From: Candidatus Sericytochromatia bacterium | GTDB taxonomy: Bacteria; Cyanobacteriota; Sericytochromatia; S15B-MN24; JAQBPE01 | Direction of reading: 5' to 3' | Length of the DNA: 64,000 nucleotides | Assembly (NCBI GenBank): GCA_035285325.1 | Contig: JAYKJB010000009.1 | Location: forward strand, 10,910-74,909 | Shown here: piece by piece, positions 3,653 through 58,727 of the stretch | How positions within the stretch are numbered: the first letter of the stretch is position 1 | Layout: each line of letters starts with the position of its first letter | Made by a program: the position numbers and the translations under genes | The notes under the pieces: generated by a model | What the model was told of the DNA's origin: nothing | The model's input: only the letters and a program-made list of their open reading frames with translations | The model's database searches: none

Positions 3653-3837
3653 GCGGACCGGACAATCACAGCTCAGGTTATCTCAAGATTAAGCCAGCTC
3701 AGCTTGGGTGAGATTTCCGCTTGAGCCGCTCAAGCTTGGGTAAGAGCCCATTAGAGCAACGGAATTCACACGTTCCGTTCGAGAACGTGTTGACCATTTG
3801 TGTGCCCCGCCCCCGTGGGATTGAAAGGAGAATCGTG

Positions 3838-9376: not shown

Positions 9377-10738
9377 TCAGTGAAGGGTCACGGCCGCCGG
9401 AATGCCCTGGCCCTGGAGCTGGCGGGCGGCAGCGCCGGCGGCGCTGGGGTTCCGATAGTTGCCGACATAGACCCGGCTCATCCCGGCGCTGTGGCCCGTG
9501 TAGGACTGAATGCCCTGGGAACGCAACTGGCTGACCAGCAAGGCGGCATTGTCCGGATTCGAAAAGGAGCCGACCTGGACGCCGTAGCGGCCGCCCTGCG
9601 GGCGAGCGGAGCGCTGGTGGGCACGGCGGCTGTGCGGCTGGCCTTGACCGCCACCCCACGGAATGTAGGAGGAATGCCCCGGAATCCAGGGGGTGCTGCG
9701 ATAGCCCGGCGCCGTGTACCGCGCGTGCCAATGACCCCGACCGGGGGCCTTCCGCGCGTAACGGGTCGCCTGGGCCATCCGCTTCTTGGCGTAGCGAGAG
9801 GACAGGCGGTAGGCCCGGGCCTGGCTCCTGGCATAGCGCCCTCCCGGAGCGCGCTGCATAGCCACCAGGCGAGGCTGGCCAAGGTAAACCCGGCTCATAC
9901 CGGCGTGTCGCAGCACAAAGGCGGGCCGCCCTTGGGCTCGCAATTGCTGGACCAGCCGGGAGGCGTTATCGGGATTGGCAAAGGAGCCCACCTGCAACCC
10001 ATGGCGGCTGGGTACCCCCGCGATGGCAGCAGCGGCACGTCCCCCCGTTGGCCGAGGGGCGGCCTTCGGGAGCACCCGCGTCACGGGTTCTACCGGTTCG
10101 ATGTCCTTTGGCTCTTCATCGGCCTTCGGAACAGGCGGAATCGTGAAGGTTGGCTTGGGCTTGGGGCGGGGCGCAGGCTTGGCGGGCGCCGTGTCCGCGG
10201 GGGGGGCCGCCGCAGGCGCCCCCTCCCCGGCAGGGGGCGCTTCATTGGGAGGCGGGGCTTCCCCTTCGCCGGGCGCAGGCTTGCCCGCCGTCTTGACCGG
10301 CGCACCCCCTTGTTTGGGCTCGGAAGGCGGCGGAGGGGCTGCCTCATCCGGTTTGGCGGGGTCAGCGGCAGGCTCGGAGGCTGGCGCGGGCGCCTGGGCA
10401 ACGGGGTCAGCTGGCGCCTCTTCGGGCGACGAGATGCTGTTGACGATCTCGTCCACCACCTCCGGAGCAAACACCAGCATGGCGTAGTAGCCACCGCCAC
10501 CAAGGAACAAGAGGGCCGCAATGCCAATCAGGGCACTCTTGACCCAGTTTTTCGAGCCAGAGGGCTTGGCGGAAGCGCCCTCTTCATCTTCCTCCTCGTC
10601 GTCCTCCTCCTCCTCCTCGTCGTGCTCGTCATCGCCCTCCTCGCCGTCCTCTTCTCCGTAATATTCGTCCTGGTCCTGATCGTAATCAGGCACGCTGCTG
10701 ACGAACTCAGGCGAATCGGGACGGCGATTGAAAAACAC
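9377..10738 (-). CDS. SPOR-domain cell-division/septal peptidoglycan-binding protein with acidic N-terminal tail
   Basis: GTG start at 10738 with an AGGAGG RBS 6 nt upstream. The N-terminus carries a poly-acidic run DEHDEEEEEDDEEEDEE. One TM helix (ALIGIAALLFLGGGGYYAMLVF) is followed by a long Pro/Ala-rich linker. Two SPOR-like repeats: GLQVGSFANPDNASRLVQQLRAQG and YGVQVGSFSNPDNAALLVSQLRSQG. Confidence 0.75.
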   Translation of the reverse strand: MFFNRRPDSPEFVSSVPDYDQDQDEYYGEEDGEEGDDEHDEEEEEDDEEEDEEGASAKPSGSKNWVKSALIGIAALLFLGGGGYYAMLVFAPEVVDEIVNSISSPEEAPADPVAQAPAPASEPAADPAKPDEAAPPPPSEPKQGGAPVKTAGKPAPGEGEAPPPNEAPPAGEGAPAAAPPADTAPAKPAPRPKPKPTFTIPPVPKADEEPKDIEPVEPVTRVLPKAAPRPTGGRAAAAIAGVPSRHGLQVGSFANPDNASRLVQQLRAQGRPAFVLRHAGMSRVYLGQPRLVAMQRAPGGRYARSQARAYRLSSRYAKKRMAQATRYARKAPGRGHWHARYTAPGYRSTPWIPGHSSYIPWGGGQGQPHSRRAHQRSARPQGGRYGVQVGSFSNPDNAALLVSQLRSQGIQSYTGHSAGMSRVYVGNYRNPSAAGAAARQLQGQGIPAAVTLH

Positions 10739-11018
10739 GAAGGTCCTCCTGGGAGAGCCGCCAAAACCCGTTTATCAGAGCACGGGGCGCGGGTTGAAGT
10801 TCCGTCGACGGGCCGGTCCGGCCCCCGGTGATGTGACACGCAAGCGCGACGGAAGGATTATACCCCGTCCCCACCCGCCCATGCCCGAACGACCGGACAA
10901 TTCCGGCATGAACCGTGAAGGTGTGCCTCGTACCGCACGGCGCGCCCGACGCGTGCTACCCTAATGCCACCAGCCCATCGCTGAACGACCGCCCTCGCCC
11001 AACCCCAGGAAGCCGCGC

Positions 11019-11840
11019 GTGACGTTGCCATCACCGATTGCGCTCTATGACTCCGGCCTCGGAGGGCTGTCTGTTCTGCGCGTGCTGACGGCGCGCCTGC
11101 CCGGCGAGTCGTTTCTTTATTTTGGCGATACGGCTCGCGTGCCCTATGGGCCCCGTCCCGCCGCCGAGATCGTGGCCTTCAACCTGCAGATCGCCGACTG
11201 GCTGGTTGCCGAAGGGGCCAAGTGCCTGGTGGTGGCCTGCAACACCTCCTCGGCGTTGGCCCTCACCCGGCTCGAAAATGAGGTGTCCGTCCCGATCGTG
11301 GGGCTGATCCAGGCTGGCGCGGAAGCCGTCGTCGACGCCGCCCCCGACGGTCCGATCGGCCTGATCGCCACCCAGGCGACCGTGGCCAGCGGTGCTTATC
11401 AACGGGCGATCGCCGCCCGGGCCCCCTCCGCCCCGGTGCTGGCGCAGGCGTGCCCCGCCCTGGTGCCGCTGGTGGAGTCCGGTGCCTGGGCCGGCCCCGA
11501 GGCCCACGAAGCGCTGCGTGACTGCCTCGCGCCCTTTCTTGCGACCCCGCCCCGCGCCCTGCTGCTCGGATGCACCCATTACCCTCACCTGGCGCCCCTG
11601 ATCGCATCCTGGCTACCCGGCGTGCCCCTGATCGATCCGGCGATTCGCCTGGCGGACCACGTGGAATCCGTGCTGAGCACGCGCGGGATCGGCGCCTGCC
11701 GGCCGGCCGTGCCCCCGTTGCGCGTCACGGTCAGCGGGGACGCTCAGCGATTCCGGGCCGAGGCGGAACGGCTGATTCCGGGACTGGTTTCCGAAGTGGA
11801 GCGCGTCACGCTGCCGACGCTGGCAGCTGGTCGGCCGTGA
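11019..11840 (+). CDS. murI: glutamate racemase
   Basis: GTG start with an AGGAAG RBS. Glutamate-racemase motifs DSGLGGLSV, CNTSSA and LGCTHYP. Confidence 0.9.
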   Translation: MTLPSPIALYDSGLGGLSVLRVLTARLPGESFLYFGDTARVPYGPRPAAEIVAFNLQIADWLVAEGAKCLVVACNTSSALALTRLENEVSVPIVGLIQAGAEAVVDAAPDGPIGLIATQATVASGAYQRAIAARAPSAPVLAQACPALVPLVESGAWAGPEAHEALRDCLAPFLATPPRALLLGCTHYPHLAPLIASWLPGVPLIDPAIRLADHVESVLSTRGIGACRPAVPPLRVTVSGDAQRFRAEAERLIPGLVSEVERVTLPTLAAGRP

Positions 11841-22400: not shown

Positions 22401-22537
22401 AGCAACTGGGGCGCTGGCGAGAGGCCGTCGAGGTGTACAACCGCCTGTCGAACTTGCCCCCGTCAACCGAGCGCACGGATGCGCGCGCCCGCCTTGACTG
22501 GATCGAAAAAAATATCCCCAAGGAGGCCCGCCAATGA
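19484..22537 (+). CDS. large secreted tetratricopeptide-repeat (TPR) protein
   Basis: 1017 aa. Signal peptide RRRSLFRLTSLLLAGATWLAAPALPVLAAS. The rest is TPR-like helical repeats with recurring Y/F/W/A/L/G patterns. Confidence 0.8.
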   Translation: MVNASMPRRRSLFRLTSLLLAGATWLAAPALPVLAASGATPAAEGRTPGSDLAWWTKLNQLLERRAYPAAEAELSVAFNLPGRGGGEADRLAYWLGHAQRRNGRNAEALQHLALVPADSRWFLPALLERAFIRRDLGEDETAIGLLEQAIAILPEDLKSPARAALADLYFTSGQYSKALELYRVLANTYGPAQERGLFAWGWSLLRLKQEEAATNVWKQALERFPTSRYSQAVRLALGNVMLTRGEHLAASTFYNEAARHGADDALMARAELLAGEAYADAKEYALALSHYRAVPPESPLREPASYGEAWATWQQGRGPEALNMFTAWLKRYPRSNYRGGVYFALGALARDAGNQAEASKHFEQVQKVAPRSIWAEEALYELTRQAFAARTHDDVLTLCKKMELQFPRSRWLGPVYWMRGETYLVQGNFSEAVKAYSQLAVLGNQAFLVGKGEEVDFKIGLAQFYAGNYQEAARVLEAVDQGPLLADAVFWQGEARYRLGQYDSARALYGKLVQQHPDFSRLTEAFYGLGWASYKLKDLPGARSAFSEAVRRFPEGRMRQDALYRLGLVLVEMREWEAARKTFETLLKSPLEPNLAAETRFQIAWSLNRQDRLEEAAEAFGALLNLPAAQDLVPRALLWRGRAYFRLKRFPEAITALKAATEHPESSPSLRVEAGQQLAAAHFNIGQFVESRKAYEALLNSGSLPPDHQQEIKQGVVQSLLKAGDYKQARLEISRSGAVSDSDVPTLLAIGQGFVDQANWDEVLETYRIAGKACPPTLRHWAGRALLEKRQWADAAAVLQPLRETTDQELKPLAQYDLARAQRGAGDLAAAKDNLVALSEAYPGKDIGALALREAAEVAREQKDFPAAQNLFRRVAENHGFPLERRRQAWMDLGDLHRQAKQWGPALLAYRGARGLSSPNSLPAALGGYWAGHVLVEMRQFKEAVRELSGLKFPDNAEPLPSLAALKLGEALEQLGRWREAVEVYNRLSNLPPSTERTDARARLDWIEKNIPKEARQ

Positions 22538-24105
22538 GGCATGCCCGGGTGCGCCTCCTCTCTTGTCTGGCCTGGTTGCCCGGGTTGCTGGTGATGGCCA
22601 CTCCTGCGCTCGCGGAGGCCGAGGGTGGCGACGAAAAGCTGCCGGCCCAGTTGCCCACCGTGACCATTCAGGGCAAGGATCTGTCGCAGCAGGAAGGGGA
22701 TGCCAACCTGCGCATCGCCCCTCAACTGGGGCAGTGGAATTCGCGCGTAACCATTCCGGAAACGCCGCAGCGTCGCGCCACGGCCGAAGACAACCGGACC
22801 TTGATGGTGGGGGTGACCCCTACGACCGTGGAGCCTCCCACCCCCTTGCCGACAGCCCAGATGCCCTACACGAGCGTGATGGGTGGCTGGGGCCCCCTGC
22901 TTCAATACCGGGCCGGCGTGTATGATGCCCGCTGGTGGGGCCCCGCCATGGGGGTCACGGAAATTGAGGGTCGCGCAGGCTGGGGCTGGTCCGGCTGGCA
23001 AGCCCGGGAATGGCTCGATTGGCCGGGTGTCGCGCGCGCGGGCGGCAACGGGGAAGGGTTTTTCTGGCAGGCGGGCGGCAAGGAGGGTCGGCAAAACGCC
23101 TATGGGCTCACGCTCGACCTGGGTCCCAAGCGTCCCTGGGGGGCGTCGCTGCGCTATGAACGAGGCGCGGCCGAGGGGGCGAGCCAGTCGCTCTACACCC
23201 AGCGTGCCGCGGCCGTCGCCAACTGGCGACCCCAGCTGGGGGGCAAGGACCATCGGTCGGAGCTGGACCTCACGCTGCAGCACCGAATCTGGGGCAAACA
23301 AGACGGCGCTGAGGGTTACGTGCGATTCTCGGACGTCTGGACTCTGTCCGATCACCTGGAACTGGAAGGCGCGCTGGGGGGAGGCTACTGGGGACGTGAG
23401 CCGATCCTGGATCCCAGCGTGCTCTTTCACCTGCGCCCCTCGGTCCTGACCCACCTGTTCGTCGGCCTCAAAGCGCGCAGTGAGTTACCCGACTTCGAGG
23501 CACTCTATCTGCGTCGACCAGCCACCGCCGCCAACGATGATCTGCAAGCCGAGCGCGTCCAGGGCTGGGCTCAGCTGGGCGGCAGCCACCGCCTGACCGA
23601 CCAGGTCTGGGCGCACATCAGTGGCGACCTGCGTCAAAGCAAGCGTCTCATTTTCTGGTCCGACAAGGATGGCGACGGCCTCTGGCAGCCGGCCAACAAC
23701 GCCGATGACCAATGGACCCAGGTGCTGGATGGCCGCCTGCAGATCAACTGGCTGCCTGGCTTGCAGCAGAACATCAAGGCCCTGGTGCGCTCGACCCAGC
23801 CGCTCGGATTCAGCGAGCTACGTCTGGCCACCAATGCGGAGGGCAGCCTGCCCGGCCCGGCGGCGCCGATCGCCTATTCCGTCTCGCTGGACCACCGCCA
23901 GGCCCAACTGTCCACCGAGCAAATTCAAGGGGGCGGACTGGCCAATGGTCTGTTCGCCGAGGCGGACCTGCGCTATCCGCTCAGTCAGGACCTGCACCTG
24001 GGACTGCGGATTGCGGATGTGCCATTGATCCTGAACCAGCCGAGCGCCCCGAACTATTTTGCCCCCACTCCCCTGCTCACGGGCCACGTCCAGTACCTGT
24101 TCTGA
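22534..24105 (+). CDS. outer-membrane beta-barrel protein
   Basis: The ATG overlaps the TGA of the upstream TPR gene (ATGA coupling). Signal peptide LLSCLAWLPGLLVMATPALA. The C-terminus ...GHVQYLF ends in an aromatic Phe, as BAM substrates do. Alternating beta-strand-like pattern. Confidence 0.65.
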   Translation: MRHARVRLLSCLAWLPGLLVMATPALAEAEGGDEKLPAQLPTVTIQGKDLSQQEGDANLRIAPQLGQWNSRVTIPETPQRRATAEDNRTLMVGVTPTTVEPPTPLPTAQMPYTSVMGGWGPLLQYRAGVYDARWWGPAMGVTEIEGRAGWGWSGWQAREWLDWPGVARAGGNGEGFFWQAGGKEGRQNAYGLTLDLGPKRPWGASLRYERGAAEGASQSLYTQRAAAVANWRPQLGGKDHRSELDLTLQHRIWGKQDGAEGYVRFSDVWTLSDHLELEGALGGGYWGREPILDPSVLFHLRPSVLTHLFVGLKARSELPDFEALYLRRPATAANDDLQAERVQGWAQLGGSHRLTDQVWAHISGDLRQSKRLIFWSDKDGDGLWQPANNADDQWTQVLDGRLQINWLPGLQQNIKALVRSTQPLGFSELRLATNAEGSLPGPAAPIAYSVSLDHRQAQLSTEQIQGGGLANGLFAEADLRYPLSQDLHLGLRIADVPLILNQPSAPNYFAPTPLLTGHVQYLF

Positions 24106-28883: not shown

Positions 28884-30212
28884 ATGACCTGCCCCTCGCA
28901 GCCGTCGCTGCCCCCTGCTCCGCTCAAACGCCCCCCCGCATCGCTGCCGGTCTGGCTGGCGGAGCACCGCTTGTGGGGCGAACTTTCGCGCGTCGCGGTG
29001 CGTCTGGGGGTGCGCCTGCTGGTGGTGGGCGGCGGGGTCCGTGATTGGCTACTCGGGCGCACCCCGGGGGATTGGGACCTGGTGGTTTCCCACTCGCCTC
29101 AACGTTTCGTCGCCGCGCTGCGAGACGCCCTGCCCGTCACCGCCACCGTCCTGCTCGACGAGGCGATGCAGGTCTGGCGCCTGCAACTCGCCGATGGAAC
29201 GGTCCTGGATGTCGCCGCTATGCAAGAGGGGAACCTCATCGCGGACCTCAGCCGACGGGACCTGACCCTCAACGCGATCGCCTGGGAATTGCCCGATGGC
29301 ATCTGGCACGATCCGCTGTCCGGGATCGCCGATTTGCAAGCGGGGCTGCTGCGGGTACCGGCCCGTCAGAACCTGGAAGATGATCCCTTGCGGGTGCTGC
29401 GGGTCTACCGCTTCGCCGCCACCCTCGGCTACACCATCAGTGAACCGTTCGCTGCCTGGGCGGGCGAACTGGCGCCCCTGTTGCGACACCCGGCGGGGGA
29501 GCGGATGGGGGCCGAATGGGCCAAGATTCTGGCCAGTGGACGAGCGGCCTGCACCCTCCAGTTGATGCAGGCCCACGGCACCCTCGGCGAGGCGCTGGGC
29601 TGCCCGCAGGCCGACTGGCAGGCCGGCATCCTGACCATTGCGGCCGGCGAAAAATCCTGGAACCAGCGCCCGGGCGACGCCTGGGCCCGCACGCGCACCT
29701 GGCTGGAGGGCCCCGTGCGCGAGGACCGCCCCCGTCTCCAGGCCGTGATGCTGGCCGCTCTCCTCGCCCCGCTCGCCGAGGCGCCCCGAGCAGGCGTGAT
29801 GACCCGCCTACGTCTGAGCCGCAAGGAGGTCCAGCTGGTCCGCTGCCTCTGCGAGGAGGCGGAGGGCTTCGCACGGGCCCTGCGCGAGCGGTTTGGCAAG
29901 CGCGCACAGCATCGTCTGTTCAAACGATGCGGTGAAAATTTCCCGGGGCTGGCCTGGCTTCAGGCCGCGACGGCCACCCCGCCTGATCGGGAGCTCATCG
30001 GCGCATGCCTGGCGGATTACTGGCAGCGGGTCGACCACCCCCTGCCGCGCCACGTCAATGGACACGACCTGCTGGGGCTGCCGGGGCTCGGGCCCGGGCC
30101 GGCGATCGCCGATTGGCTCACGGCAGTCGAGGAGGAGACCGCGGTCGGCGCGCTGCACTCACGCGAGGAAGCCCTCGCGTGGGTGGCGGCGAGGCTCGGG
30201 GACGCGGTATAG
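28884..30212 (+). CDS. tRNA nucleotidyltransferase / poly(A) polymerase family (CCA-adding-type) protein
   Basis: Pol-beta NTase head motifs VVGGGVRD and RRDLTLNA. 442 aa. Confidence 0.8.
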   Translation: MTCPSQPSLPPAPLKRPPASLPVWLAEHRLWGELSRVAVRLGVRLLVVGGGVRDWLLGRTPGDWDLVVSHSPQRFVAALRDALPVTATVLLDEAMQVWRLQLADGTVLDVAAMQEGNLIADLSRRDLTLNAIAWELPDGIWHDPLSGIADLQAGLLRVPARQNLEDDPLRVLRVYRFAATLGYTISEPFAAWAGELAPLLRHPAGERMGAEWAKILASGRAACTLQLMQAHGTLGEALGCPQADWQAGILTIAAGEKSWNQRPGDAWARTRTWLEGPVREDRPRLQAVMLAALLAPLAEAPRAGVMTRLRLSRKEVQLVRCLCEEAEGFARALRERFGKRAQHRLFKRCGENFPGLAWLQAATATPPDRELIGACLADYWQRVDHPLPRHVNGHDLLGLPGLGPGPAIADWLTAVEEETAVGALHSREEALAWVAARLGDAV

Positions 30213-30269: not shown

Positions 30270-30327
30270 GGTCCAAGGGCACGCCGAGCGATGCACCGAG
30301 GGACGCTCCGGGAGGTGAGCGGAGGCC

Positions 30328-31584
30328 GTGGCCGACGAAGACAAGCGACACGATCCGACGCCTCACAAATTGGATGAGGAGCGCAAAAAGGGCAACGTCC
30401 TGAAGGTGCAGGACCTGCTCGCCGCCGCCATCATCTTCGTCTCGGCTTACGCCCTGGCGTGGTCGGCAGAATTCGCCTACCAGTACGTCTATGCCTTTAT
30501 CGTCGAGATCCTGCGCAGCATTCCGGAGTATCAGGGGCTGAGTGTGGCCCAGGCCCGCTGGTTGCTCTGGCGGGTGGTCCTGGTGGTCGTCATCAGCACC
30601 ACGCCCTTCGTGGTCCTGATCCTGCTGACGGTGCTGGTGGTCCTGTATGCCCAGGTGGGCTTCCTGATCACGTTCAAACCGCTGGAGCCGAAATACGAAA
30701 AAATCGACCCGGTCAACGGCTTCAAAAACAAGGTCAATCCGTTCAAGGTCAAGCAGCTGTTCAACCTGGTCAAAACCCTGCTGGTTTGCCTCGTGATCGG
30801 TTACTTGGTGTTCGACGTGGTCCGGGACAACCTGGCCACGATTCTGCAGAGCGCCACCCTCTCGGTCACCGGCGCGCTGGGCCTGATTGGCTTCCTGATA
30901 CTGGAGGTGGCCAAAAAAGTCGCCCTGTTCATGCTCGTGGTCGCCTTCGTCTCGTACCTGTTCGAGCGCTGGCAATGGTGGAAAGGCCTGAAGATGTCCG
31001 ACAAGGAGATCAAGGATGAGTACAAGAAGCTGGAAGGCGACCCCCATATCAAGGGCAAGCAACGCCAGAAGATGATGGAAATTTCTTCCGGCGCCATGCG
31101 TGAGGTGGTCCCCAATGCCGACGTGGTGGTCACCAACCCGACCCACTTTGCCGTGGCGCTGGAATACAAGCCCAAGCGCGGAATGAAGGCGCCCAAGGTG
31201 CTGGCCAAGGGCAAGGGGCGCCAGGCGCTGCTGATCCGACAAATTGCAGAGGAAAACTTCATCCCCACGGTCGAAGACCCCCCGACGGCACGCGCCCTCT
31301 ATGACCAGGTCAAGGTGGGGCAAAGCATTCCCCCCGAACTGTTCGTGGCGGTGGCCAAGATCATCGCCACCATCATGCGCAAACGGCAAAGGCCGGCCGC
31401 CCTGCCGGTCGTTCCCTCTCTGACCGGTTACGTCCCTGCCCTGATCGAGCCGGCTCCGCCACCAGCCCGCACCCAAGCGGGGTCCCCGCCGTCAGCCGCA
31501 GCGAGCGAACCGGCCGCGGAAACGAGGCCCGAAATCGATGCGGCCGAAGCCATCCCCCCCGCCCCCCCCTCAGCCCCCACCTGA
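30328..31584 (+). CDS. flhB: FlhB/YscU-family type III export-gate protein homolog (orphan)
   Basis: GTG start with a GGAGG RBS. Four N-terminal TM segments. The conserved NPTH autocleavage site (VTNPTHFAVAL) and a PKVLAKGKG block are present. A ~70-aa Pro/Ala-rich C-terminal extension follows. Confidence 0.8.
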   Translation: MADEDKRHDPTPHKLDEERKKGNVLKVQDLLAAAIIFVSAYALAWSAEFAYQYVYAFIVEILRSIPEYQGLSVAQARWLLWRVVLVVVISTTPFVVLILLTVLVVLYAQVGFLITFKPLEPKYEKIDPVNGFKNKVNPFKVKQLFNLVKTLLVCLVIGYLVFDVVRDNLATILQSATLSVTGALGLIGFLILEVAKKVALFMLVVAFVSYLFERWQWWKGLKMSDKEIKDEYKKLEGDPHIKGKQRQKMMEISSGAMREVVPNADVVVTNPTHFAVALEYKPKRGMKAPKVLAKGKGRQALLIRQIAEENFIPTVEDPPTARALYDQVKVGQSIPPELFVAVAKIIATIMRKRQRPAALPVVPSLTGYVPALIEPAPPPARTQAGSPPSAAASEPAAETRPEIDAAEAIPPAPPSAPT

Positions 31585-31623
31585 CAGCGACGGCGATGAA
31601 AGGGTTTCGACCGGGAACCCGTT

Positions 31624-31652
31624 TTGACGCTCGCATACCCCCGTGCTATCTT
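31624..31652 (+). promoter_or_regulatory. strong sigma70-type promoter for the SLH-porin gene
   Basis: TTGACG, a 17-nt spacer, then TATCTT. The ORF starts at TTG 31713, with a GGAGG RBS upstream. Confidence 0.5.
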
Positions 31653-31712
31653 GCCTGGGCGCGTCCTGAGCCCAACCCGGCAGACGTCGCCGTCGATTGG
31701 AGGGTCCCCGTC

Positions 31713-33467
31713 TTGAACGCACGTCTTCGCTTGATCACCTGCCTGACGGCTGGCCTCGCGCCGTGGTTCGCAACGCCCGTTCTGGCGTACACGCCGGTCA
31801 GTGAGCTGAAGGACGTGGGGTCGGACCACTGGGCCCGGGAAGCCATCGTGGCCTTGGTCGAGAAATATGAAGTCATGGATGGCTTCAGCGACAAGACCTT
31901 CCGGGGCTCGCGGACCCTCACGCGCTATGAACTGGCTGCGGCCCTCGCCAAGGTGATGGCCAAGGTCGAGGAACAAATTGCCAGTGCGACGGGCAATCCG
32001 ATCAGCCTCGACCCCAGCGTCAACACCGACGATCTTCGGACGATTGCGCGCCTGCAGCGGGAATTCCGGGACGAACTGGAGGTGCTCAAGGGCCGCACGG
32101 ACAGCCTCGACTCGCGGCTTTCCACCGTCGAGAAGCGCGCTCGCCTCAGCGGCGAGATTCGCAACGAATACCGCTCGTATCTGGGCGCGATGCCGGCCGC
32201 CCAGTGGCCGACAGATGACACCCGCGTTCGCAGCCGGCTCAACCTGGATGCCGCCCTCGCCGACGACGTGGCGGCTCACAGCAGCCTGTTCTGGGACGTT
32301 TACGGGCCGGTGGGAGCCGGGGCTGCCTTCGCGACGCCCGGTCGCCCGGACACGCCCTTCACCGAAGCGTACCTTTCGCGCGCCTACGTGAGCTACACCC
32401 CCGGGACCTGGGCCCTGCACACGGGCGTGATGAACGCCAGCGACGTGCTGACCCTCGGCTCGAGTTTCAAGAACCCCTTCACCCAGAATGTCTGGCGCGA
32501 TGGCCTGGGCGGCTATGGGTTCGTGGGTACGCCCGGCCTGGCCCTGGGCAGCGGTGACCTGGTGGCCCGGCTCAAGCTGAATGGGGAGGCCCGCCCGGCC
32601 AACCCGGCCTGGTGGCTGCCGGGCACGGATGTGGCCCTGCAGGCGCTGGACCCCAACGCCACGCAGCCACTGGCCCCTCGCGGGAATTACATGGCAGCCG
32701 CAGGCACCCAGATGGGCCCCTTCCAGCTGGGCCTGGCCTATTACCAGGGCGGACTTTCCGGACGAGACGTGGAACGCCTGAACACGCTGGGCTACGCGGA
32801 CAGTCTGCCTCAACTGGAAGGCACGCTGCCTGGCGGACGGATGCTGGCCACCGTGGGAGGAGACTTCGGCGTCGTGCGTGCTCAGCTAGCGGCCAAGACG
32901 GTGGGATTGCCGACCGATGCGCCGGATGCGGCCAACAAGACCCTGACGAGCACACTGGATGTCGGCAGCGAGGCCTTGGGTCTCAGTCTTCAAACCGTTT
33001 CCCGGACTGCCTTTACGGGCAATTTCAACCCTTCGCAAGCCAGCCTCACGCTGGCCAGCAATGACCTGTTTGGCACGGGGTTCGGCCTGGGTCTGGGCCT
33101 GAATGCCGGCAGTGTGGTCGGTACCCGTCTCAGCAACGGTCAGCCGTTTCAGTTCAGTGGCCGGAATCTGATGCAAGGCCTGGCAGGAGCCGATTATGCC
33201 AGCTACGGAGCGACGCTGCGGATCCCTGGCTTCTCGATCTTCCCTCACCTGACGCTGGCGGCCCAGCAGACAGGCGGCCCCAATCTCGAACGCACGCTGG
33301 GCTCGGGGCTGACGCTGCAAACCGAAATCCAGATCGCCCAGTTGCCGCGTATCCAGGTGGAGTATTCCTCCGGCAAGTTCGACCCCGGCACTGACAACGG
33401 CCTGCTCAACAACGCCGCCCTCGTGTCCCACGAACTGCTCGCCGCCCAGATGCTCGTGCCCTTCTGA
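31713..33467 (+). CDS. SLH-domain outer-membrane porin (SlpA/OmpM-type): SLH, coiled coil, C-terminal beta-barrel
   Basis: Signal peptide MNARLRLITCLTAGLAPWFATPVLA. SLH motif: ELKDVGSDHWAREAIVALVEKYEVMDGFSDKTFRGSRTLTRYELAAALAKV. A heptad coiled coil is followed by a beta-rich C-terminal half ending ...MLVPF, with a terminal Phe. Confidence 0.85.
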   Translation: MNARLRLITCLTAGLAPWFATPVLAYTPVSELKDVGSDHWAREAIVALVEKYEVMDGFSDKTFRGSRTLTRYELAAALAKVMAKVEEQIASATGNPISLDPSVNTDDLRTIARLQREFRDELEVLKGRTDSLDSRLSTVEKRARLSGEIRNEYRSYLGAMPAAQWPTDDTRVRSRLNLDAALADDVAAHSSLFWDVYGPVGAGAAFATPGRPDTPFTEAYLSRAYVSYTPGTWALHTGVMNASDVLTLGSSFKNPFTQNVWRDGLGGYGFVGTPGLALGSGDLVARLKLNGEARPANPAWWLPGTDVALQALDPNATQPLAPRGNYMAAAGTQMGPFQLGLAYYQGGLSGRDVERLNTLGYADSLPQLEGTLPGGRMLATVGGDFGVVRAQLAAKTVGLPTDAPDAANKTLTSTLDVGSEALGLSLQTVSRTAFTGNFNPSQASLTLASNDLFGTGFGLGLGLNAGSVVGTRLSNGQPFQFSGRNLMQGLAGADYASYGATLRIPGFSIFPHLTLAAQQTGGPNLERTLGSGLTLQTEIQIAQLPRIQVEYSSGKFDPGTDNGLLNNAALVSHELLAAQMLVPF

Positions 33468-40062: not shown

Positions 40063-40209
40063 AAGCTATCGTAACAGCATGCGCCGCGGGTGTCAAAGCA
40101 CCGGATCACGAACCAGTTGGTGGGAATCGGACAACCGCGCCTCGCCCCGTTGGCTTGGGCCCCGCCGGAGCGGTGCCTGTCACGTGTGGCAGCGACGCGT
40201 TGGCTTACA

Positions 40210-40557
40210 ATGGAGCCCATGAAATACATGCTGGCTTCCTGGACCGCCGCGACCCTGGCCTTTTTCATCGCCGCTTACCTGGTCCCTGGCTTTACCGTCA
40301 GTGGCCTGGTGCCCGCGATGATCGGCGCGCTCGTGCTGGGCTTCGCCAATGCCGTGATCCGACCGATCATCGTGCTCTTCTCGATTCCCCTGACGTTCCT
40401 GACGCTGGGCCTGTTCCTGTTCGTGATCAACGGGGCCATGCTCTGGCTGGTGACCCTGGTGGTGCCCGGCGTCGCGGTCGCCCATTTCGGCTGGGCCATC
40501 CTGGCCGCCGCGGTGATCGCGGTCGTCAACTCGTTTTTCGGCCTGTTCCTGGGCTAG
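40210..40557 (+). CDS. DUF360 / phage-holin-4_2 superfamily membrane protein
   Basis: Four predicted TM helices. Family-like blocks YLVPGFTVSG and LGFANAVIRPIIVLFSIPLTFLTLGLFLFVINGAML. Confidence 0.55.
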   Translation: MEPMKYMLASWTAATLAFFIAAYLVPGFTVSGLVPAMIGALVLGFANAVIRPIIVLFSIPLTFLTLGLFLFVINGAMLWLVTLVVPGVAVAHFGWAILAAAVIAVVNSFFGLFLG

Positions 40558-45369: not shown

Positions 45370-46824
45370 ATGCGACTTCTGATTGCCGCCGTGGCACTTA
45401 CCCTTCTCGCGGCCCCAGCGCTCGGCGCCTCGATCGCGCCTGCCCAGGTCCGCAAGCTGGAGCAGGCACGCGAATCGTACCTGGCCAGCCTGCCGCGTCC
45501 GATCAGCGCTCAGGACTGGGAGGCCCGCTATCGCGCCCCGCGCTGGTTCTGGGAAGCCCCCCCGCAAGGGCCGCTGGCCGACTATGAGACGCTGGTAAAG
45601 GAAACGGCCCAGACCGCGCAGGTGGGGGACCCGGGCGACCCCTATTTCAGGCGGAAAGCCATCTGGGTTCGTCCCTACGCAGCGGATGCGATCGACCTGC
45701 GGGTGCTGGAGGTCCTGGACCGCGCGCAAGCGATGGGCATCACCGAGATCTACCTCGAGACCTTCTATCACGGCCGCGTGTCCTACCTCGGCAGCCAGGT
45801 GTTCCCAGCGCGCTGGCCCAAGCTGAATGTGGCTCGGGTCTATGCGCGCGAAGCTCACCACCGCGGCATGAAAATTTACGCGTGGCTGCACGCCTTGCGT
45901 TGGGGCGAAGACCAGATTCAGAGCGGCTGGGTCGAGGGCGTGACCAACGGTTATGGGGACACCCCTCTGGCCGCCGAAGGGCCCGGTTCTGCCTTCGTCT
46001 CGCCCTCGTCCCCGCAGGTGGGGGAGCGGCTGGGGGCGCTGCTGGAGGAAGTGGGACAGCTGGGCTATTTTGATGGGGTCTGGCTGGATTATATGCGCTA
46101 TCCGGTGGCAGCCAAATCCCGCACCGGTCATCCGGATCCGAGAGACTTCTGGGGGTACTCGCCAGCCACGGTGACGGCGTTACGCAGCAAGCGCAAGGAC
46201 CTTGACACGGCTGAGTTCCGACACTTCCTGACCGATGGTGATGCCCCGAGCGAACAGACCCGCCAGCGCTGGCTGACGGCCTGGCGAGGCTTTTTGAGTG
46301 ACGAACTGCGGGACCTGATCGCCAACTTGCGGACCCGCCTACCGGCGTCGGTGAAGTACGGCCTGGTGTTTCATCCCAGCAGCTACATGCGCGGTCACGA
46401 CGTTCGCGCCCAGGACGCCCTGGCCTGGACGCCGCTGTTCGATGAACTCGCACCGATGTGCTATGCGTTCGATCCAGAACTGGATCCGGTCGACGCGAGC
46501 CAGCTTCGCTCCACCATCGACAAGGAACTGGCCTCGGTCGATGACCATCTGGCTGCCCTGCCAGGGCGACGTCCGGCCCTGGTTGTGGCCCTGGCAGCCG
46601 AACCGCAGCCCGGTACCCCGCGCGTCCAACCACCGCGTCGCCACTGGCCGGTCAGCGCGCAGGTAGCCTACCTGAAGGGGCGCCGGGTCGAAGGGGCATT
46701 CCACCACGTGGAAGGCGTGGCACTGTTCAATTATGGCTGGCTCTGGCCGGCCTCGGACGCCTCGCGCCGGGCCAGCGACGACCCGTGGACCGGTGCTGGT
46801 CGAGGCGGGCGTCCCCCGCTATAA
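45370..46824 (+). CDS. glycoside-hydrolase-like family 10 (YngK/YddW-type) secreted protein
   Basis: Signal peptide MRLLIAAVALTLLAAPALGA. A TIM-barrel-like domain follows, with ITEIYLETFYHGRVSY, KIYAWLHALRWG and GVWLDYMRYP blocks. Confidence 0.7.
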   Translation: MRLLIAAVALTLLAAPALGASIAPAQVRKLEQARESYLASLPRPISAQDWEARYRAPRWFWEAPPQGPLADYETLVKETAQTAQVGDPGDPYFRRKAIWVRPYAADAIDLRVLEVLDRAQAMGITEIYLETFYHGRVSYLGSQVFPARWPKLNVARVYAREAHHRGMKIYAWLHALRWGEDQIQSGWVEGVTNGYGDTPLAAEGPGSAFVSPSSPQVGERLGALLEEVGQLGYFDGVWLDYMRYPVAAKSRTGHPDPRDFWGYSPATVTALRSKRKDLDTAEFRHFLTDGDAPSEQTRQRWLTAWRGFLSDELRDLIANLRTRLPASVKYGLVFHPSSYMRGHDVRAQDALAWTPLFDELAPMCYAFDPELDPVDASQLRSTIDKELASVDDHLAALPGRRPALVVALAAEPQPGTPRVQPPRRHWPVSAQVAYLKGRRVEGAFHHVEGVALFNYGWLWPASDASRRASDDPWTGAGRGGRPPL

Positions 46825-48843: not shown

Positions 48844-49695
48844 TCAGGCGCGATAGTTGCGGACGAGTACCTCGTTGACCGGCCCCCGCTTGCTCGCGTC
48901 ACGGTTGACCAGGCGAGGGGCCGCCACGATCTCCACCAAGTAATCCCGATACAACTCCTGAATGTAAGGGGTGTCGGAGTTGCTCAACATCACCTTGCAG
49001 CCTCGCAAGGAGAGCGTGCGGAATACCTCGGCCAGCTGGCGCTGATCCCGCGCATCGAAGGCCCCCGCCGTGTAGCCGGTGAAATTCGCCGTGCTGGAAA
49101 CCGGGTGATAGGGGGGATCGAAATAGATGAAGTCCCCGCGGCGGGCCCTCAACAGAACTTGCTCGTAACCCTGGTGTGCCAGCCCCGTGCCGCGCAAGGC
49201 CGCCGAGGCAGCCCGCAAGCCCACCTCGTTGCAGATCTGTGGATTCTTGTAGCGACCGAAGGGAACGTTGAAGGCGCCTCGCGAATTGACACGATACAGG
49301 CCGTTGAAGCAGGTCCGGTTGAGAAAGATCAGGCGCGAGGCGCGCTCGATGCCATCTAGCTGGCGCACATCGAGGGCGCGAATGGCGTAATAGTAATCCT
49401 CGTCCGCACGATGGCCCCGCAAATGGCGAATCAACCGCTCCACATCATCGCGAATGACCTGATAGGTGTGAACCAATTCCGCGTTTTCATCGGAAAGATG
49501 AGCCCGCACCGGTTGCAGCGCAAAAAACACCGCGCCGCCGCCAACGAATGGCTCGTGATAAGAATTAAAACGAGCTGGAAGACGCCCCGTAATCTGAGGC
49601 AATAATGATCGCTTCCCTCCAACCCATTTTACAAATGGTGCGGCATCAGGAATTCGAACTTGAATTGCTGAATTTTTGATTGCGGCTTGTGGCAT
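48844..49695 (-). CDS. Dam-family DNA N6-adenine methyltransferase (D12 class), orphan
   Basis: Motifs FVKWVGGKRSLL, EPFVGGGAVFF and FIYFDPPYHP (DPPY). The 5' ~250 nt of the gene is conspicuously AT-rich compared with the rest. Confidence 0.85.
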   Translation of the reverse strand: MPQAAIKNSAIQVRIPDAAPFVKWVGGKRSLLPQITGRLPARFNSYHEPFVGGGAVFFALQPVRAHLSDENAELVHTYQVIRDDVERLIRHLRGHRADEDYYYAIRALDVRQLDGIERASRLIFLNRTCFNGLYRVNSRGAFNVPFGRYKNPQICNEVGLRAASAALRGTGLAHQGYEQVLLRARRGDFIYFDPPYHPVSSTANFTGYTAGAFDARDQRQLAEVFRTLSLRGCKVMLSNSDTPYIQELYRDYLVEIVAAPRLVNRDASKRGPVNEVLVRNYRA

Positions 49696-51906: not shown

Positions 51907-53544
51907 GTGTTCCCCCAAGACCAGGTTGATACCATGAGCCGCTCACCTGCTCCTTCCCTGCCTGAGGCCACCACCCGCCTGCTCTCCGTGCGCAGCTTTC
52001 AGTGGTACGCGACCTTGGTCGCAAGCGCCCTGCTCCTCTGGCTCTACGCCATCATGGTCGGTAAGACCGGAGGCCGGCTGATTTACACCCTGGATGACCC
52101 TTACATCCATCTGGCCCTGGCTGAGAACATTTTGAGAGGCAGCTACGGCGTGAACCTCGGGGAACTGTGTGCCCCCTCCTCCTCCATTCTCTTTCCGTTT
52201 TTGCTGACCTTGCCCCTGGCGATGGGCTGGGGAGACCAGGCCCCCCTGCTCTACATCGTGCCTGCCACGCTCGGCACCGTCTGGCTCATGGCCGGCCTGG
52301 TCTGGCAAAACGCAGGCCCGGGCTTCGGACGCCTGGCCCCTCTGGCGTTTCTGGTCATTCCACCGGCCCTGATTCTGGCCCTCAACAGCCTGGCCCTGAT
52401 GTTCACTGGCATGGAACACCCTCTCCACGTGCTCGGCATGACCATGTTCCTGACAGGTCTGTATCAAGCCTTTCAGCCTGGCGGTCGGCCAACGTTGGCT
52501 GCCTGCGGCATCGCGCTGTGTGCGCTGATTCGTTTCGAGGGCCTGGCGATCGCCCCTTTCGGCCTGGTCGCCCTGTACCTCGCGGGGCACAGAAAGACGG
52601 CTTGGATACTGGGAGGGGGCCTGGCAGGGGTGCTCGGAGCCTACGCCAGTGCCATGTGGGCCTGGAATCTGCCCCTCCTCCCCAGTTCCGTGCTGACCAA
52701 ATCCCTCGCGGCCACGTCGCTCAGCGAGGGGCACGCCCTGGTGGGCCTGAAAACCGCCATCTGGGGCGTCTACTCCTCACTCGAGACCCGAACCGGGGCC
52801 TTGCTTGCGCTGGCCGCCTTGCTGTTCACGGCAGGACTCTTCCAGCGCGAAGGCCACGCCCGGCCGGCTCAGGTGATCCAGGGCCTGGCGCTCCTGACGA
52901 TCGGGGCGCACCTGTGTGCCGGCCACTTTGGCTTCTTCGCCCGCTATGAGGCTTACGTGGTGGCAACCGCGCTGTGTGCCGTGTTTCTGATTCCGCGAGA
53001 TTTCGGCCTCGGCCGGGGCGCCCTGGTGTCACTGACCAGCGTGCTCGGGATCTTGCTTGTGACCGGGCTGCCGTACTTCGCCCTGATCCTGCACACCCCG
53101 CCCGGCTCGCTGAATATCTATCAGCAGCAGTACCAGATGCATCGGTTTGCGACCGAGTACTTTCCGGAACCAGTCGCCATCAACGACCTGGGCTGGGTGG
53201 CATTTCAAAATGATCAGTACGTGCTCGACTTCATTGGGCTAGGCTCCGAACGGGCCCGACTGCTGACCCGTGCCGAGGGCCGCACGGTGGAGACCCTGCA
53301 ACGTCTTGTGCGCGAACACCACATCGCCTACGCCATGATCTACGACAGCTGGTTCCCGAATCGGCCCCCCTCCTGGCGCCACGTCGCGACCCTGCAGACG
53401 ATCCGGGTGCTGGCCGCCTCAGACAAGGTGGCTTTTTACCTGATCGCCCATGACCAGGAGGCGCGCATGCGGGCAGCCCTGCAGGCGTTTGCCAAGACCC
53501 TGCCGCCGGGGGCCAGCTTGACACTGACGGCTCCGACCCCGTAA
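51907..53544 (+). CDS. polytopic membrane protein, GT-C-like (putative membrane glycosyltransferase)
   Basis: About 11 TM helices. An early extracytoplasmic-loop motif YTLDDPYIHLALAENI resembles the GT-C DD/DE catalytic-loop signature. A soluble C-terminal domain follows. Confidence 0.5.
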   Translation: MFPQDQVDTMSRSPAPSLPEATTRLLSVRSFQWYATLVASALLLWLYAIMVGKTGGRLIYTLDDPYIHLALAENILRGSYGVNLGELCAPSSSILFPFLLTLPLAMGWGDQAPLLYIVPATLGTVWLMAGLVWQNAGPGFGRLAPLAFLVIPPALILALNSLALMFTGMEHPLHVLGMTMFLTGLYQAFQPGGRPTLAACGIALCALIRFEGLAIAPFGLVALYLAGHRKTAWILGGGLAGVLGAYASAMWAWNLPLLPSSVLTKSLAATSLSEGHALVGLKTAIWGVYSSLETRTGALLALAALLFTAGLFQREGHARPAQVIQGLALLTIGAHLCAGHFGFFARYEAYVVATALCAVFLIPRDFGLGRGALVSLTSVLGILLVTGLPYFALILHTPPGSLNIYQQQYQMHRFATEYFPEPVAINDLGWVAFQNDQYVLDFIGLGSERARLLTRAEGRTVETLQRLVREHHIAYAMIYDSWFPNRPPSWRHVATLQTIRVLAASDKVAFYLIAHDQEARMRAALQAFAKTLPPGASLTLTAPTP

Positions 53545-57989: not shown

Positions 57990-58727
57990 ATGAACAAGGT
58001 GTACGCCGGCGCGAGTCCGAAGGAGAAGGAAAAACTCGTCAACGAGTATCTGCCTCTCGTCCACAAGATCGCGCGGGGCCTTGCTCGTCGTAGCACCGAC
58101 CCGGTGGATGACCTGATTCAGGTGGGTTCGATCGGGTTGCTCGAAGCGATCAATCGCTATGAGACCGGTCACAACACGGAATTCAAGACCTACGCGGTCC
58201 ATTTCATCACGGGCCACATCCGGCACTATCTGCGGGACAGGCAGACCCTGGTGCGGGGCCCGCGCGCCCTCCAGGAACTCTCCTACCGCTTGCGGCAAGT
58301 CACCCAGGAACTGGGTCACCGCTTGGGACGCGAAGCGACGAACCAGGAACTGGCCGACACGCTCAACGTTTCGACGGACCTGATTGACCAGGCCCGCGTG
58401 TACGACCGCCGCGTCACCGTGATGTGGCTCGACCAGGAGACCGGCGACGGCGAGGAAGACGAACAACGCTCGTTGCTCAACACCCTGGCTGATCCGACCA
58501 CCAGCAACGCGCATCAAAACGAGCGAGATGAACGCTTGGTGCTGACGGAAGCCATGAAGCACCTGCCCGACCACCAGCGCGAGTTGCTTCAGATGCGTTA
58601 CTTCGACGACCTGACCCAAGCGGAACTCAGCCGTCGTCTGGGCATCAGCCAGATGGAAGTCTGTCGGCGGCTGAAGAAGGCCGAAAAAGGACTGCGGCTG
58701 ATCGTCTCCAACGCGCCGGCGCGCTGA
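57990..58727 (+). CDS. RNA polymerase sigma factor, sigma-70 family group 3 (SigB/SigF-like)
   Basis: GAAGGAG RBS. Region 2 DLIQVGSIGLLEAINRYETGHNTEFKTYAVHFITGHIRHYLRD and region 4 LTQAELSRRLGISQMEVCRRLKKA. 245 aa. Confidence 0.85.
   Translation: MNKVYAGASPKEKEKLVNEYLPLVHKIARGLARRSTDPVDDLIQVGSIGLLEAINRYETGHNTEFKTYAVHFITGHIRHYLRDRQTLVRGPRALQELSYRLRQVTQELGHRLGREATNQELADTLNVSTDLIDQARVYDRRVTVMWLDQETGDGEEDEQRSLLNTLADPTTSNAHQNERDERLVLTEAMKHLPDHQRELLQMRYFDDLTQAELSRRLGISQMEVCRRLKKAEKGLRLIVSNAPAR

Follow-up and report, generated by a model that had tools for sequence, protein, structure and literature searches.

A stand-alone flhB gene of Candidatus Sericytochromatia: a probable flagellar FlhB at a dispersed locus

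The window analyzed here, a 64-kb stretch of DNA from a Candidatus Sericytochromatia bacterium, carries on its forward strand an intact open reading frame for a 418-aa protein of the FlhB family (30328..31584; GTG start, TGA stop at 31582-31584). In a Pfam profile search, residues 4-349 span the entire Bac_export_2 model (PF01312, positions 1-335/335) and score 356.7 bits, where the cutoff is 24.4. With E = 1.7e-106 this match is far above chance, and the full-length family membership proposed in an earlier note on this DNA stands. So does its reading of the translation start: a purine-rich ribosome-binding region, GGGAGG...GGAGG, can be read from the sequence at 30307..30325 (+ strand), with GGAGG-type motifs 2-14 nt 5′ of the GTG. 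The flhB orthologs of the tier-1 genomes, that is, those with the synteny of the window, share a GGAGG/GAAGGAGG-like motif and the M-A-D-E-D start; the remaining upstream region is not conserved among them. Neither this upstream comparison nor a promoter scan revealed a conserved promoter, flagellar-type promoters included.

Directly upstream of flhB lies a PolyA_pol/CCA-type nucleotidyltransferase gene (28884..30212, +; Pfam PolyA_pol), and downstream follows a gene for an SLH-domain porin (31596..33467, +; Pfam SLH, and NCBIfam por_somb at 103 bits with a cutoff of 100), so that both flanking genes had been named correctly from the sequence. The nucleotidyltransferase-flhB adjacency is kept in all tier-1 genomes, with a gap of 115 bp in the window and about 30 bp in its relatives. 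This gap contains no terminator and no conserved promoter, and flhB is probably transcribed by read-through from the nucleotidyltransferase gene. The porin gene likely has its true start near 31713: in an identical Logan contig the gene call begins at the equivalent of this position, and a sigma-70-like promoter of the porin gene is predicted at 31624-31652.

The earlier statement that the 64 kb hold no other flagellar or type III secretion (T3SS) gene was confirmed by Pfam and NCBIfam scans of about 48 ORFs and by tblastn searches of the whole window. The tblastn searches returned FlhB only, whether with panels of FliM/N/O/P/Q/R, FlhA, FliE/F/W, CsrA and FlhF/G, with panels of FlgA/C/F/G/H/I/K/L/M/N, or with every ORF of Firmicutes fla/che operons. 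A sigma factor encoded at 57990-58727 was considered as a candidate FliA, a role that looks doubtful: its best matches are SigB/F/G or cyanobacterial SigF, it scores below the FliA/WhiG cutoff, and it shares only 28% identity with a sigma factor from a flagellar cluster. The large genes without assigned function that flank the flagellar cluster of the tier-1 genome RYN_339 have no homologs in the window.

The protein begins with a cytoplasmic N-terminus (residues 1-28; 30328..30411, +), which bears a PTPHK...RKKGNV motif, aligns with the N-terminus of Salmonella FlhB and is conserved, 8 of its 28 columns being invariant across 28 Sericytochromatia FlhBs. Hydropathy predicts a first helical hairpin (30412..30651, +; TM1 at ~29-49, TM2 at ~78-108) and a second one (30754..30966, +; TM3 at ~143-166, TM4 at ~182-213), to which the AlphaFold2 helices at residues 28-63 and 73-109, and at 140-167 and 180-221, correspond. 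The FlhB_L loop between TM2 and TM3 (residues 109-142, KPLEPKYEKIDPVNGFKNK...; 30652..30753, +) was delimited by alignment and conservation; it aligns with the Salmonella FlhB loop ...KSLQPKFSKLNPLPGIKRMF, 7 of its 34 columns are invariant in the class, and its pLDDT is low in the AlphaFold2 model of FlhB alone. The solved structure of the FliPQR-FlhB complex shows the loop wrapped around the entrance of the gate and inserted between FliQ subunits (10.1101/686782). The window protein has the arrangement expected of the family, four hydrophobic helices in two hairpins joined by FlhB_L.

The linker and FlhB_CN (residues 214-269; 30967..31134, +), recognized from conservation and from alignment to the PDB CN fragments of YscU/EscU/FlhB, show the highest conservation in the protein (mean 0.74, 13 of 56 columns invariant). 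They are followed by the predicted autocleavage motif NPTH, which was read from the sequence at residues 270-273 (31135..31146, +) and is invariant in 28/28 Sericytochromatia FlhBs. The globular cytoplasmic domain FlhB_CC (residues 274-349; 31147..31374, +) is well defined in the AlphaFold2 model, where pLDDT exceeds 90 over residues ~260-350. In Foldseek, the cytoplasmic domain matches crystal structures of FlhB_C/YscU_C/EscU_C (6z0w, 3b0z, 3b1s, 3bzs and 2jli) with a probability of 1.00, target-normalised TM scores of 0.72-0.93 and an rmsd of mostly 1-2 A. The membrane domain gave no match to 6s3l, and the C-domain alone was matched, because the helices of the isolated model are packed unlike those of the complex. 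The last segment is a Pro/Ala-rich tail (residues 350-418; 31375..31581, +; 25% Pro, 23% Ala), predicted to be disordered from its composition and its pLDDT of ~44-54, and without any invariant column. Every Sericytochromatia FlhB examined ends in a tail of 17-76 aa, and the tier-1 tails have a short motif in common, LTG[YF]xP..[IV]EP. The four TM helices, the NPTH site, the FlhB/YscU cytoplasmic domain and the tail of about 70 aa had all been described before, and hydropathy, the motif position, Pfam and composition bear out that description.

Across the class, conservation is highest in the N-terminus, the FlhB_L loop, the linker and NPTH, and the tail varies freely; the earlier suggestion to check the NPTH loop and the FliPQR-contacting region thus led to a positive answer for both. 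The gene is under purifying selection, with dN/dS of 0.06-0.29, similar to thiolase and AccD, and the amino-acid identity of FlhB among relatives is well above that of the flanking nucleotidyltransferase and porin.

In NCBI, the product is named 'EscU/YscU/HrcU family type III secretion system export apparatus switch protein'. This generic name is explained by a score of 332.7 bits with NCBIfam TIGR00328 (flhB), narrowly under the equivalog cutoff of 349.25, which is a curated naming threshold and not a structural feature. Taken literally, the name would make the gene an injectisome (non-flagellar T3SS) SctU, and the family HMM indeed spans FlhB and SctU alike. However, the SctU model TIGR01404 scores lower than the flhB model (286.2 bits), and PDB chains of flagellar FlhB, including 6s3l_K from the FliPQR-FlhB complex, score 170-199 bits versus 92.6 for the injectisome protein SpaS. 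Moreover, the outgroups closest in sequence are flagellar FlhBs encoded within operons of Marinamargulisbacteria and Firmicutes (34-43% identity), the co-occurring genes are flagellar, and none of the genes seen in these genomes was sctV, sctC or sctN. Judged by its sequence, the protein is much closer to flagellar FlhB than to injectisome SctU, and we regard the SctU assignment as extremely improbable. A YlqH-like protein reduced to the C-terminal domain, the other case that the earlier note had set apart from its reading, is not what the window encodes either. YlqH/FlhX proteins (TIGR00789 flhB_rel) have the C-terminal domain in common with it (residues 273-351, 49.8 bits) but lack the TM hairpins and FlhB_L, and the window protein has both in a complete N-terminal membrane region.

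Flagellar FlhB of Salmonella and Vibrio (6s3l_K, 3b0z) has the same domain order: N-terminus, hairpins with FlhB_L, linker, NPTH and C-domain. The alignment covers residues 2-355 (E = 1e-57) at ~30% identity over the full length, and the C-domain has the same fold. The window protein differs by its additional Pro/Ala-rich tail of ~70 aa, and its gene by being encoded apart from fliPQR and flhA. The Marinamargulisbacteria and Firmicutes outgroups, encoded in fliPQR-flhB-flhA order, belong to related Cyanobacteria-sibling or Terrabacteria-type flagellar systems; their FlhBs are 352-364 aa long and without the long tail, and several of those from Marinamargulisbacteria have NPIH or NPVH in place of NPTH. 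[quoted passage not shown] Both the PRR and the Sericytochromatia tail are proline-rich and C-terminal, but the latter is longer, predicted to be disordered and without sequence similarity to the PRR. Given that the PRR was described from another phylum, the Sericytochromatia tail represents an independent case.

The absence of flagellar neighbours is not peculiar to the window. Among the Sericytochromatia-type flhB loci with adequate flanks, 0/27 have fliR or flhA adjacent, whereas fliR and/or flhA adjoin flhB in 96/96 loci of other lineages, so the earlier claim that a stand-alone placement is unusual in general holds. FliP, FliQ, FliR and FlhA were all absent from the +-10 kb around every Sericytochromatia flhB examined. 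The Sericytochromatia FlhBs form a single monophyletic clade, and the stand-alone flhB is a fixed, vertically inherited, class-wide trait. In other words, the window gene looks orphaned because the class Sericytochromatia keeps flhB apart from other flagellar genes. The class-wide dispersal and the single FlhB clade speak against the earlier view of the gene as an orphan paralog, as a relic of a flagellum since lost or as a recruited component.

The genes next to flhB differ by tier: a CCA-type nucleotidyltransferase and a porin in the first, xerC/D and ATP synthase in another, and yajQ in a third. Those neighbours that are genuinely conserved encode a YajQ-like protein, a UvrD-like helicase, an M48 peptidase, XerC/D and ATP synthase. 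Small conserved 'ORFs' beside or overlapping flhB were considered as hidden partners and discarded as antisense artefacts. Since the neighbours change between tiers while FlhB stays conserved, no neighbour is a constant partner. These data bear on the possibility that FlhB works without any type III apparatus, for instance as a self-cleaving regulator that is anchored in the membrane and linked to the nucleotidyltransferase or the porin. The conserved tier-1 synteny with its very short gaps, and the lack of any flagellar gene besides flhB in the 64 kb, would fit such a true orphan. However, the neighbours are wholly different between tiers, the FliPQR-contacting regions are among the most conserved parts of the protein, and flagellar genes are present in the same assemblies and in one case on the same contig, which makes a true orphan very improbable.

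The latter genes were found in several related genomes. In UBA8530, a single contig carries csrA-fliW-flgL-flgK-flgN-flgM-x-rod-binding-flgG-flgF, then xerD, then flhB. In JAYKHR01 (GCA_035285125.1), flhB lies on contig 155, in the exact synteny of the window, and its product is 78% identical to the window FlhB; contig 71 carries SLT-flgF-flgG-...-fliW-csrA-flhF-flhG. In RYN_339 (GCA_028287685.1), flhB again has the exact synteny of the window (60% identity at the protein level), and the late-gene cluster and flhF-flhG lie on another contig. The order and sequence of the late-gene cluster are conserved across the Sericytochromatia tiers. Such same-assembly co-occurrence is drawn from MAGs, in which binning errors are possible, but the single-contig linkage in UBA8530 speaks against mis-binning, as does the concordance of three MAGs.

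The genome of the window very probably carries this late-gene cluster as well. An FlgG labelled Ca. Sericytochromatia (MEB3196715.1) has an accession 870 numbers from that of the window FlhB (MEB3195845.1), comes from the same run (SRR19514065), and is encoded on a contig with flgG, flgM, flgN, flgK, flgL and fliW. It is 86% identical to the FlgG of JAYKHR01 and 76% identical to that of RYN_339, distances that mirror those of FlhB. This contig and that of the window FlhB are separate; they are tied to one genome by their neighbouring accession numbers, their common run, and their agreement in composition and distances, although composition is also similar among close relatives. The presence of flgF, flgG, flgM, flgN, flgK, flgL, fliW, csrA, flhF and flhG in the same assemblies speaks against a remnant or recruited component. 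The earlier note had allowed that a complete flagellar or T3SS cluster elsewhere in the genome would overturn its reading. This was largely borne out: a late-gene cluster and flhF-flhG are there, and FlhA and FliPQR were not directly located among the matches listed or in the flanks covered.

In an FlhA search with a Marinamargulisbacteria query, all 120 matches listed were of Marinamargulisbacteria type, with at least 72% identity. Among representatives at 50% identity, the best ten outside this group bear no Sericytochromatia label; they are unnamed or come from Nitrospinota, Elusimicrobiota, Wallbacteria or a compost metagenome. The best of them was considered as a Sericytochromatia FlhA and rejected, as its cluster, flgFG-flgAHI...fliE-fliF-flhA, belongs to another lineage. 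Filtering these representatives by composition was set aside because composition does not discriminate among them. The P- and L-ring genes flgH, flgI and flgA do not appear in the Sericytochromatia late-gene clusters; the cluster of the neighbouring lineage has them. In the searchable literature, we found no relevant statement on flagella in Sericytochromatia, Blackallbacteria or Tanganyikabacteria.

The missing ring genes, the core gate partners FlhA/FliPQR not being among the matches listed, and the position of flhB in housekeeping operons without a flagellar-type promoter may suggest that FlhB serves a reduced flagellum-derived export apparatus, with no motile flagellum and a role in secretion or in modulating another kind of motility. 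There is a precedent: the non-flagellated Lysobacter enzymogenes keeps a core resembling a flagellar T3SS (fT3SS), with export-gate homologs that include FlhB (PMC7277350), and, as in the window, this relic FlhB homolog stands in a context that does not look flagellar. However, L. enzymogenes is without flagella and flagellin, whereas Sericytochromatia keep FlgK/L/M/N, FliW, CsrA, FlhF and FlhG, and their retention points to a real filament. FlgK and FlgL form the hook-filament junction, FlgN is a chaperone and FlgM an anti-sigma factor; FliW-CsrA regulate flagellin, and FlhF-FlhG control flagellar number and placement. The set of genes present is precisely the one required solely for an external filament and its control, and these genes keep their order and sequence across tiers, while the absence of core genes from the matches listed reflects the scope of the search and is not a negative result. 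We therefore consider a reduced apparatus quite unlikely. It is also unlikely that the class has taken its export-gate genes apart altogether, with FlhA/FliPQR either missing or present as single dispersed genes under non-flagellar control, and, as part of the same reading, doubtful that flhB has been locked in housekeeping operons throughout the existence of the class. If FlhA/FliPQR were indeed missing or dispersed, the result would be either a reduced flagellum-derived secretion device or a gate assembled without operon-level co-expression.

Overall, the window gene is best explained, with a probability of roughly 85%, as an ordinary flagellar FlhB at a dispersed locus of this Candidatus Sericytochromatia bacterium. 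In the flagellar type III export gate, FlhB serves as the substrate-specificity-switch subunit. By analogy with characterized FlhB proteins, its two helical hairpins would pack on the FliP5-FliQ4-FliR1 gate, and the conserved TM2-TM3 loop would wrap the cytoplasmic entrance of FliPQR. The cytoplasmic domain would cleave itself at N270/P271 of NPTH, dock rod- and hook-type substrates and then switch to filament-type substrates. Interaction with FliPQR and FlhA, and autocleavage, are thus predicted from homology, and the organism presumably builds a flagellum. What sets this flhB apart from others is genome organisation, not function: class-wide, it appears to have been split from fliPQR and flhA and placed among housekeeping genes, in the clade of the window between the CCA-type nucleotidyltransferase and the SLH porin, with the other flagellar genes apparently in separate loci.

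Dispersed flagellar genes are compatible with functional flagella. In Campylobacterota (Helicobacter, Campylobacter), more than 50 flagellar genes are distributed over ~30 loci and the flagella are functional (PMC9321776). Their export-gate genes lie apart from one another, as with flhB in Sericytochromatia, where dispersal has so far been seen for flhB and one conserved late-gene cluster. Campylobacterota are an unrelated phylum and therefore the dispersal arose independently, which makes Sericytochromatia a second example showing that the genes for export-gate subunits can be located apart. The split of 0/27 versus 96/96 loci also means that the placement of flhB can serve as a simple marker, based on synteny, of the class. 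At the same time a false lead is removed, as the window flhB is not an orphan or a repurposed type III component. Sericytochromatia, which are non-photosynthetic, form a sister class to the oxygenic Cyanobacteria. We found no statement in the searchable literature on a flagellated ancestor of Cyanobacteria and their siblings; the late-gene cluster and FlhB of Sericytochromatia bear on whether this common ancestor was flagellated.

The flhB ORF (30328-31584, + strand) is intact and encodes 418 aa from a GTG start preceded by GGAGG-type purine runs. The protein matches Pfam PF01312 (FlhB/HrpN/YscU/SpaS) with 356.7 bits over residues 4-349, covering the entire model, and hydropathy places four transmembrane (TM) segments at approximately residues 29-49, 78-108, 143-166 and 182-213. 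The NPTH motif is read at residues 270-273 (nt 31135-31146, + strand), and the tail, residues 350-418, is 25% Pro and 23% Ala. Its neighbors are a PolyA_pol/CCA-type nucleotidyltransferase (NTase) gene upstream (28884-30212, + strand) and an SLH porin gene downstream. No other flagellar or type III secretion (T3SS) gene was detected in the 64-kb window, either among its approximately 48 ORFs by Pfam and NCBIfam or by tblastn with broad flagellar panels. In all these details the earlier note was accurate. The exact protein is present in NCBI (MEB3195845.1, from a MAG) and on a Logan contig of run SRR19514065. The AlphaFold2 model has a mean pLDDT of 76, rising above 90 in the C-domain. It shows four long helices, together with a loop of low confidence and a tail predicted to be disordered, and the modelled C-domain superposes on the crystal structures of FlhB_C, YscU_C and EscU_C with target-normalised TM scores of 0.72-0.93.

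The generic NCBI name, "EscU/YscU/HrcU family", is due to a near miss: the NCBIfam flhB model scores 332.7 bits, just below its equivalog cutoff of 349.25. That the protein is in fact SctU, the injectisome counterpart of flagellar FlhB, is scarcely credible, since all scores point the other way: the SctU model yields 286.2 bits against 332.7, and in the PDB the score is 170-199 bits for flagellar FlhB chains of full length and 93 for SpaS.

When one genome per GTDB species was scanned, the carriers of related FlhBs proved to be Candidatus Sericytochromatia bacteria, among them Ca. Blackallbacteria, RYN_339 and UBA8530. The identities of these FlhBs to the window FlhB fall into three tiers (60-82%, 46-49% and 36-43%), and in every tier flhB stands alone within a conserved gene order specific to that tier. 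The tier-1 order is phosphonate ABC transporter, small TPR protein, CCA-NTase, flhB, SLH porin, thiolase, accD, accA and pfk; in tier 2 flhB lies between xerC/D and the ATP synthase operon; in tier 3 it follows a yajQ-like gene and precedes a UvrD-like helicase, M48 peptidase and others. In the neighbor-joining tree all 28 Sericytochromatia FlhBs form one clade, with Marinamargulisbacteria and Firmicutes as outgroups, and all 28 carry both NPTH and a C-terminal extension. The nearest outgroup flhB genes reside in the textbook fliM-fliN-fliO-fliP-fliQ-fliR-flhB-flhA operon.

Adjacency was scored across the pooled genome and metagenome scans, only where a locus offered 1.5 kb or more upstream and 2.5 kb or more downstream. 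Clade membership of the metagenome loci was decided without reference to synteny, from FlhB identity alone: 61-100% to labelled Sericytochromatia sequences against 38-44% to others. Neither fliR nor flhA adjoins flhB at any of 27 Sericytochromatia-type loci, whereas one or both do so at 96 of 96 loci from other lineages; some loci nearly duplicate others, and the sample from other lineages is Paenibacillus-rich. The context is thus as unusual as the earlier note held, and the stand-alone flhB is fixed throughout the class rather than peculiar to this genome. As for the motif itself, Sericytochromatia and Firmicutes FlhBs keep NPTH throughout, and several Marinamargulisbacteria-type FlhBs have NPIH or NPVH (loci L010, L035, L036, L038, L039, L043 and L057; flhB at ~10001-11074 in those with full flanks). 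Flagellar operons or FlhA 73-79% identical to those of Marinamargulisbacteria also occur under unrelated taxonomic names, in L039 (Rickettsiales bacterium MED721), L057 (Actinomycetota SP4294) and the FlhA representative P0161 (Thermoproteota archaeon), probably through mis-binning or mislabelling of MAG contigs.

Against six tier-1 orthologs, flhB has a dN/dS of 0.06-0.29, rough values because dS is saturated. The amino acid identity (60-82%) resembles that of thiolase and AccD and far exceeds that of the NTase (38-45%) and porin (49-70%). Among the 28 sequences, conservation peaks in four parts, where invariant columns number 8/28 (N-terminus), 7/34 (TM2-TM3 loop), 13/56 (linker/CN region) and 4/4 (NPTH); the tail, with 0/69, is the least conserved. 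In the solved FliPQR-FlhB complex, this loop wraps the gate entrance, with conserved residues between FliQ subunits, and their mutation abolishes motility (10.1101/686782). Both NPTH and this FliPQR-contacting loop are conserved, and constraint on precisely such parts is the pattern expected of a working gate subunit. An orphan with a T3SS-independent function is very improbable, since the neighbors differ from tier to tier whereas the FliPQR-contacting regions are conserved. The Pro/Ala-rich tail characterises this lineage; beta- and gamma-proteobacterial FlhBs have a comparable but unrelated proline-rich region (PMC7771051). Tier-1 tails have a common motif, LTG[YF]xP..[IV]EP; four low-GC tier-3 tails (L026, L029, L030, L034; 3' end of flhB) are Gln/Asn/Gly-rich instead and end in ...GPSSIFD. 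Such short motifs in otherwise freely varying tails may be docking sites.

Flagellar genes do occur elsewhere in the class. A local probe set from Firmicutes fla/che operons matched a tier-2 UBA8530 contig, on which Pfam and BLAST identify csrA, fliW, flgL, flgK, flgN, flgM, an unknown gene, a rod-binding (FlgJ-N-like) gene, flgG and flgF (- strand), followed by xerD and an intact flhB (+ strand). In UBA8530, flhB and a flagellar late-gene cluster are thus physically linked. A search with its FlgG retrieved FlgGs under the names Ca. Sericytochromatia, Ca. Tanganyikabacteria and RYN_339. In GCA_035285125.1, JAYKHR010000071.1 carries SLT-flgF-flgG-rod-binding-x-flgM-flgN-flgK-flgL-fliW-csrA-flhF-flhG, and contig 155 a tier-1 flhB with the synteny of the window. 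RYN_339 (GCA_028287685.1) likewise has both loci, and the contigs bearing EUL_180-type FlgG and flhB are each 204,821 bp long. FlgG MEB3196715.1 has the organism label of the window FlhB and an accession 870 numbers away. Run SRR19514065, in which the window FlhB occurs, contains this FlgG too, and its contig there carries flgG, rod-binding, flgM, flgN, flgK, flgL and fliW. This contig resembles the window in G+C (63% vs 65%) and tetranucleotide usage (correlation 0.95), and its FlgG is 86% identical to that of JAYKHR and 76% to that of RYN_339, paralleling FlhB (78% and 60%). On this evidence, contig and window very likely come from one genome.

Between the rod-binding gene and flgM of the Sericytochromatia cluster there is always a gene of 116-143 aa without Pfam family (1536-1922 in L091, the contig very likely from the window genome; 11225-11575 in L095; 11096-11527 in L092; 6581-6997, - strand, in L037). 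Its product shows 36-50% identity between tier-1 genomes and is possibly a flagellar protein peculiar to this lineage. In tier 1 (L093 and L095, ~4.9-9.1 kb), an actin-like ALP_N/MreB-like gene, a ~500-aa coiled-coil protein and an SLT lytic transglycosylase lie 5' of flgF; the P-ring/L-ring genes flgA, flgH and flgI are absent from this cluster, in contrast to that of a neighboring lineage (L096).

A group-3 sigma factor of 245 aa that contains regions 2, 3 and 4 (57990-58727, + strand) is also encoded in the window (G+C 65.4%). Among NCBIfam models it scores highest against SigB/F/G (192 bits) and cyanobacterial SigF (176); FliA/WhiG, at 124, is below cutoff. It could be the cognate partner of the anti-sigma-28 factor FlgM, a gene for which is very probably present in this genome. 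The NTase evolves fast (38-45% identity between genomes whose neighboring genes are 75-90% identical; dN/dS up to 0.58) and scores far under every NCBIfam CCA or PcnB cutoff, and despite this divergence such a gene always precedes flhB in tier 1. A D12-class N6-adenine DNA methyltransferase (48844-49695, - strand), with third-position G+C of 0.67 vs ~0.8 in its neighbors, may be horizontally acquired. Five long ORFs of 413-811 aa (3721-6156, 22534-24105, 45370-46824, 51907-53544 and 53705-54946, all + strand) have coding-like G+C periodicity but match neither Pfam nor NCBIfam; in JAYKIL01 (GCA_035284745.1), a 528-aa syntenic counterpart of the 523-aa ORF follows the large TPR protein. A 155-aa match to Phage_holin_4_2, a four-TM holin-like family (40090-40557, + strand), lies amid metabolic genes with no phage genes nearby.

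FlgK and FlgL form the hook-filament junction and FlgN is their chaperone; FlgM is a secreted anti-sigma factor, FliW-CsrA controls flagellin, and FlhF-FlhG govern flagellar placement and number. From established family knowledge, such a set is sensible only with working flagellar type III export and a filament. The genes that the searches recovered from the class do not include FlhA, FliPQR, FliI, FliF, FliG, hook or flagellin, so that a system like that of Lysobacter (PMC7277350), reduced and derived from a flagellum, keeps a small probability. The most economical reading is that the window FlhB is an ordinary flagellar gate subunit, at a dispersed locus, of a flagellated or flagellum-capable Sericytochromatia bacterium. 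FlgK-FlgL-type genes elsewhere in the class and the class-wide dispersal argue against the earlier proposal of an orphan, remnant or recruited component. The short intergenic gaps, with no terminator and no conserved promoter, suggest that flhB would be transcribed by read-through from the NTase gene. Dispersal has a precedent in Campylobacterota, whose flagellar regulons distribute >50 genes over ~30 loci (PMC9321776).
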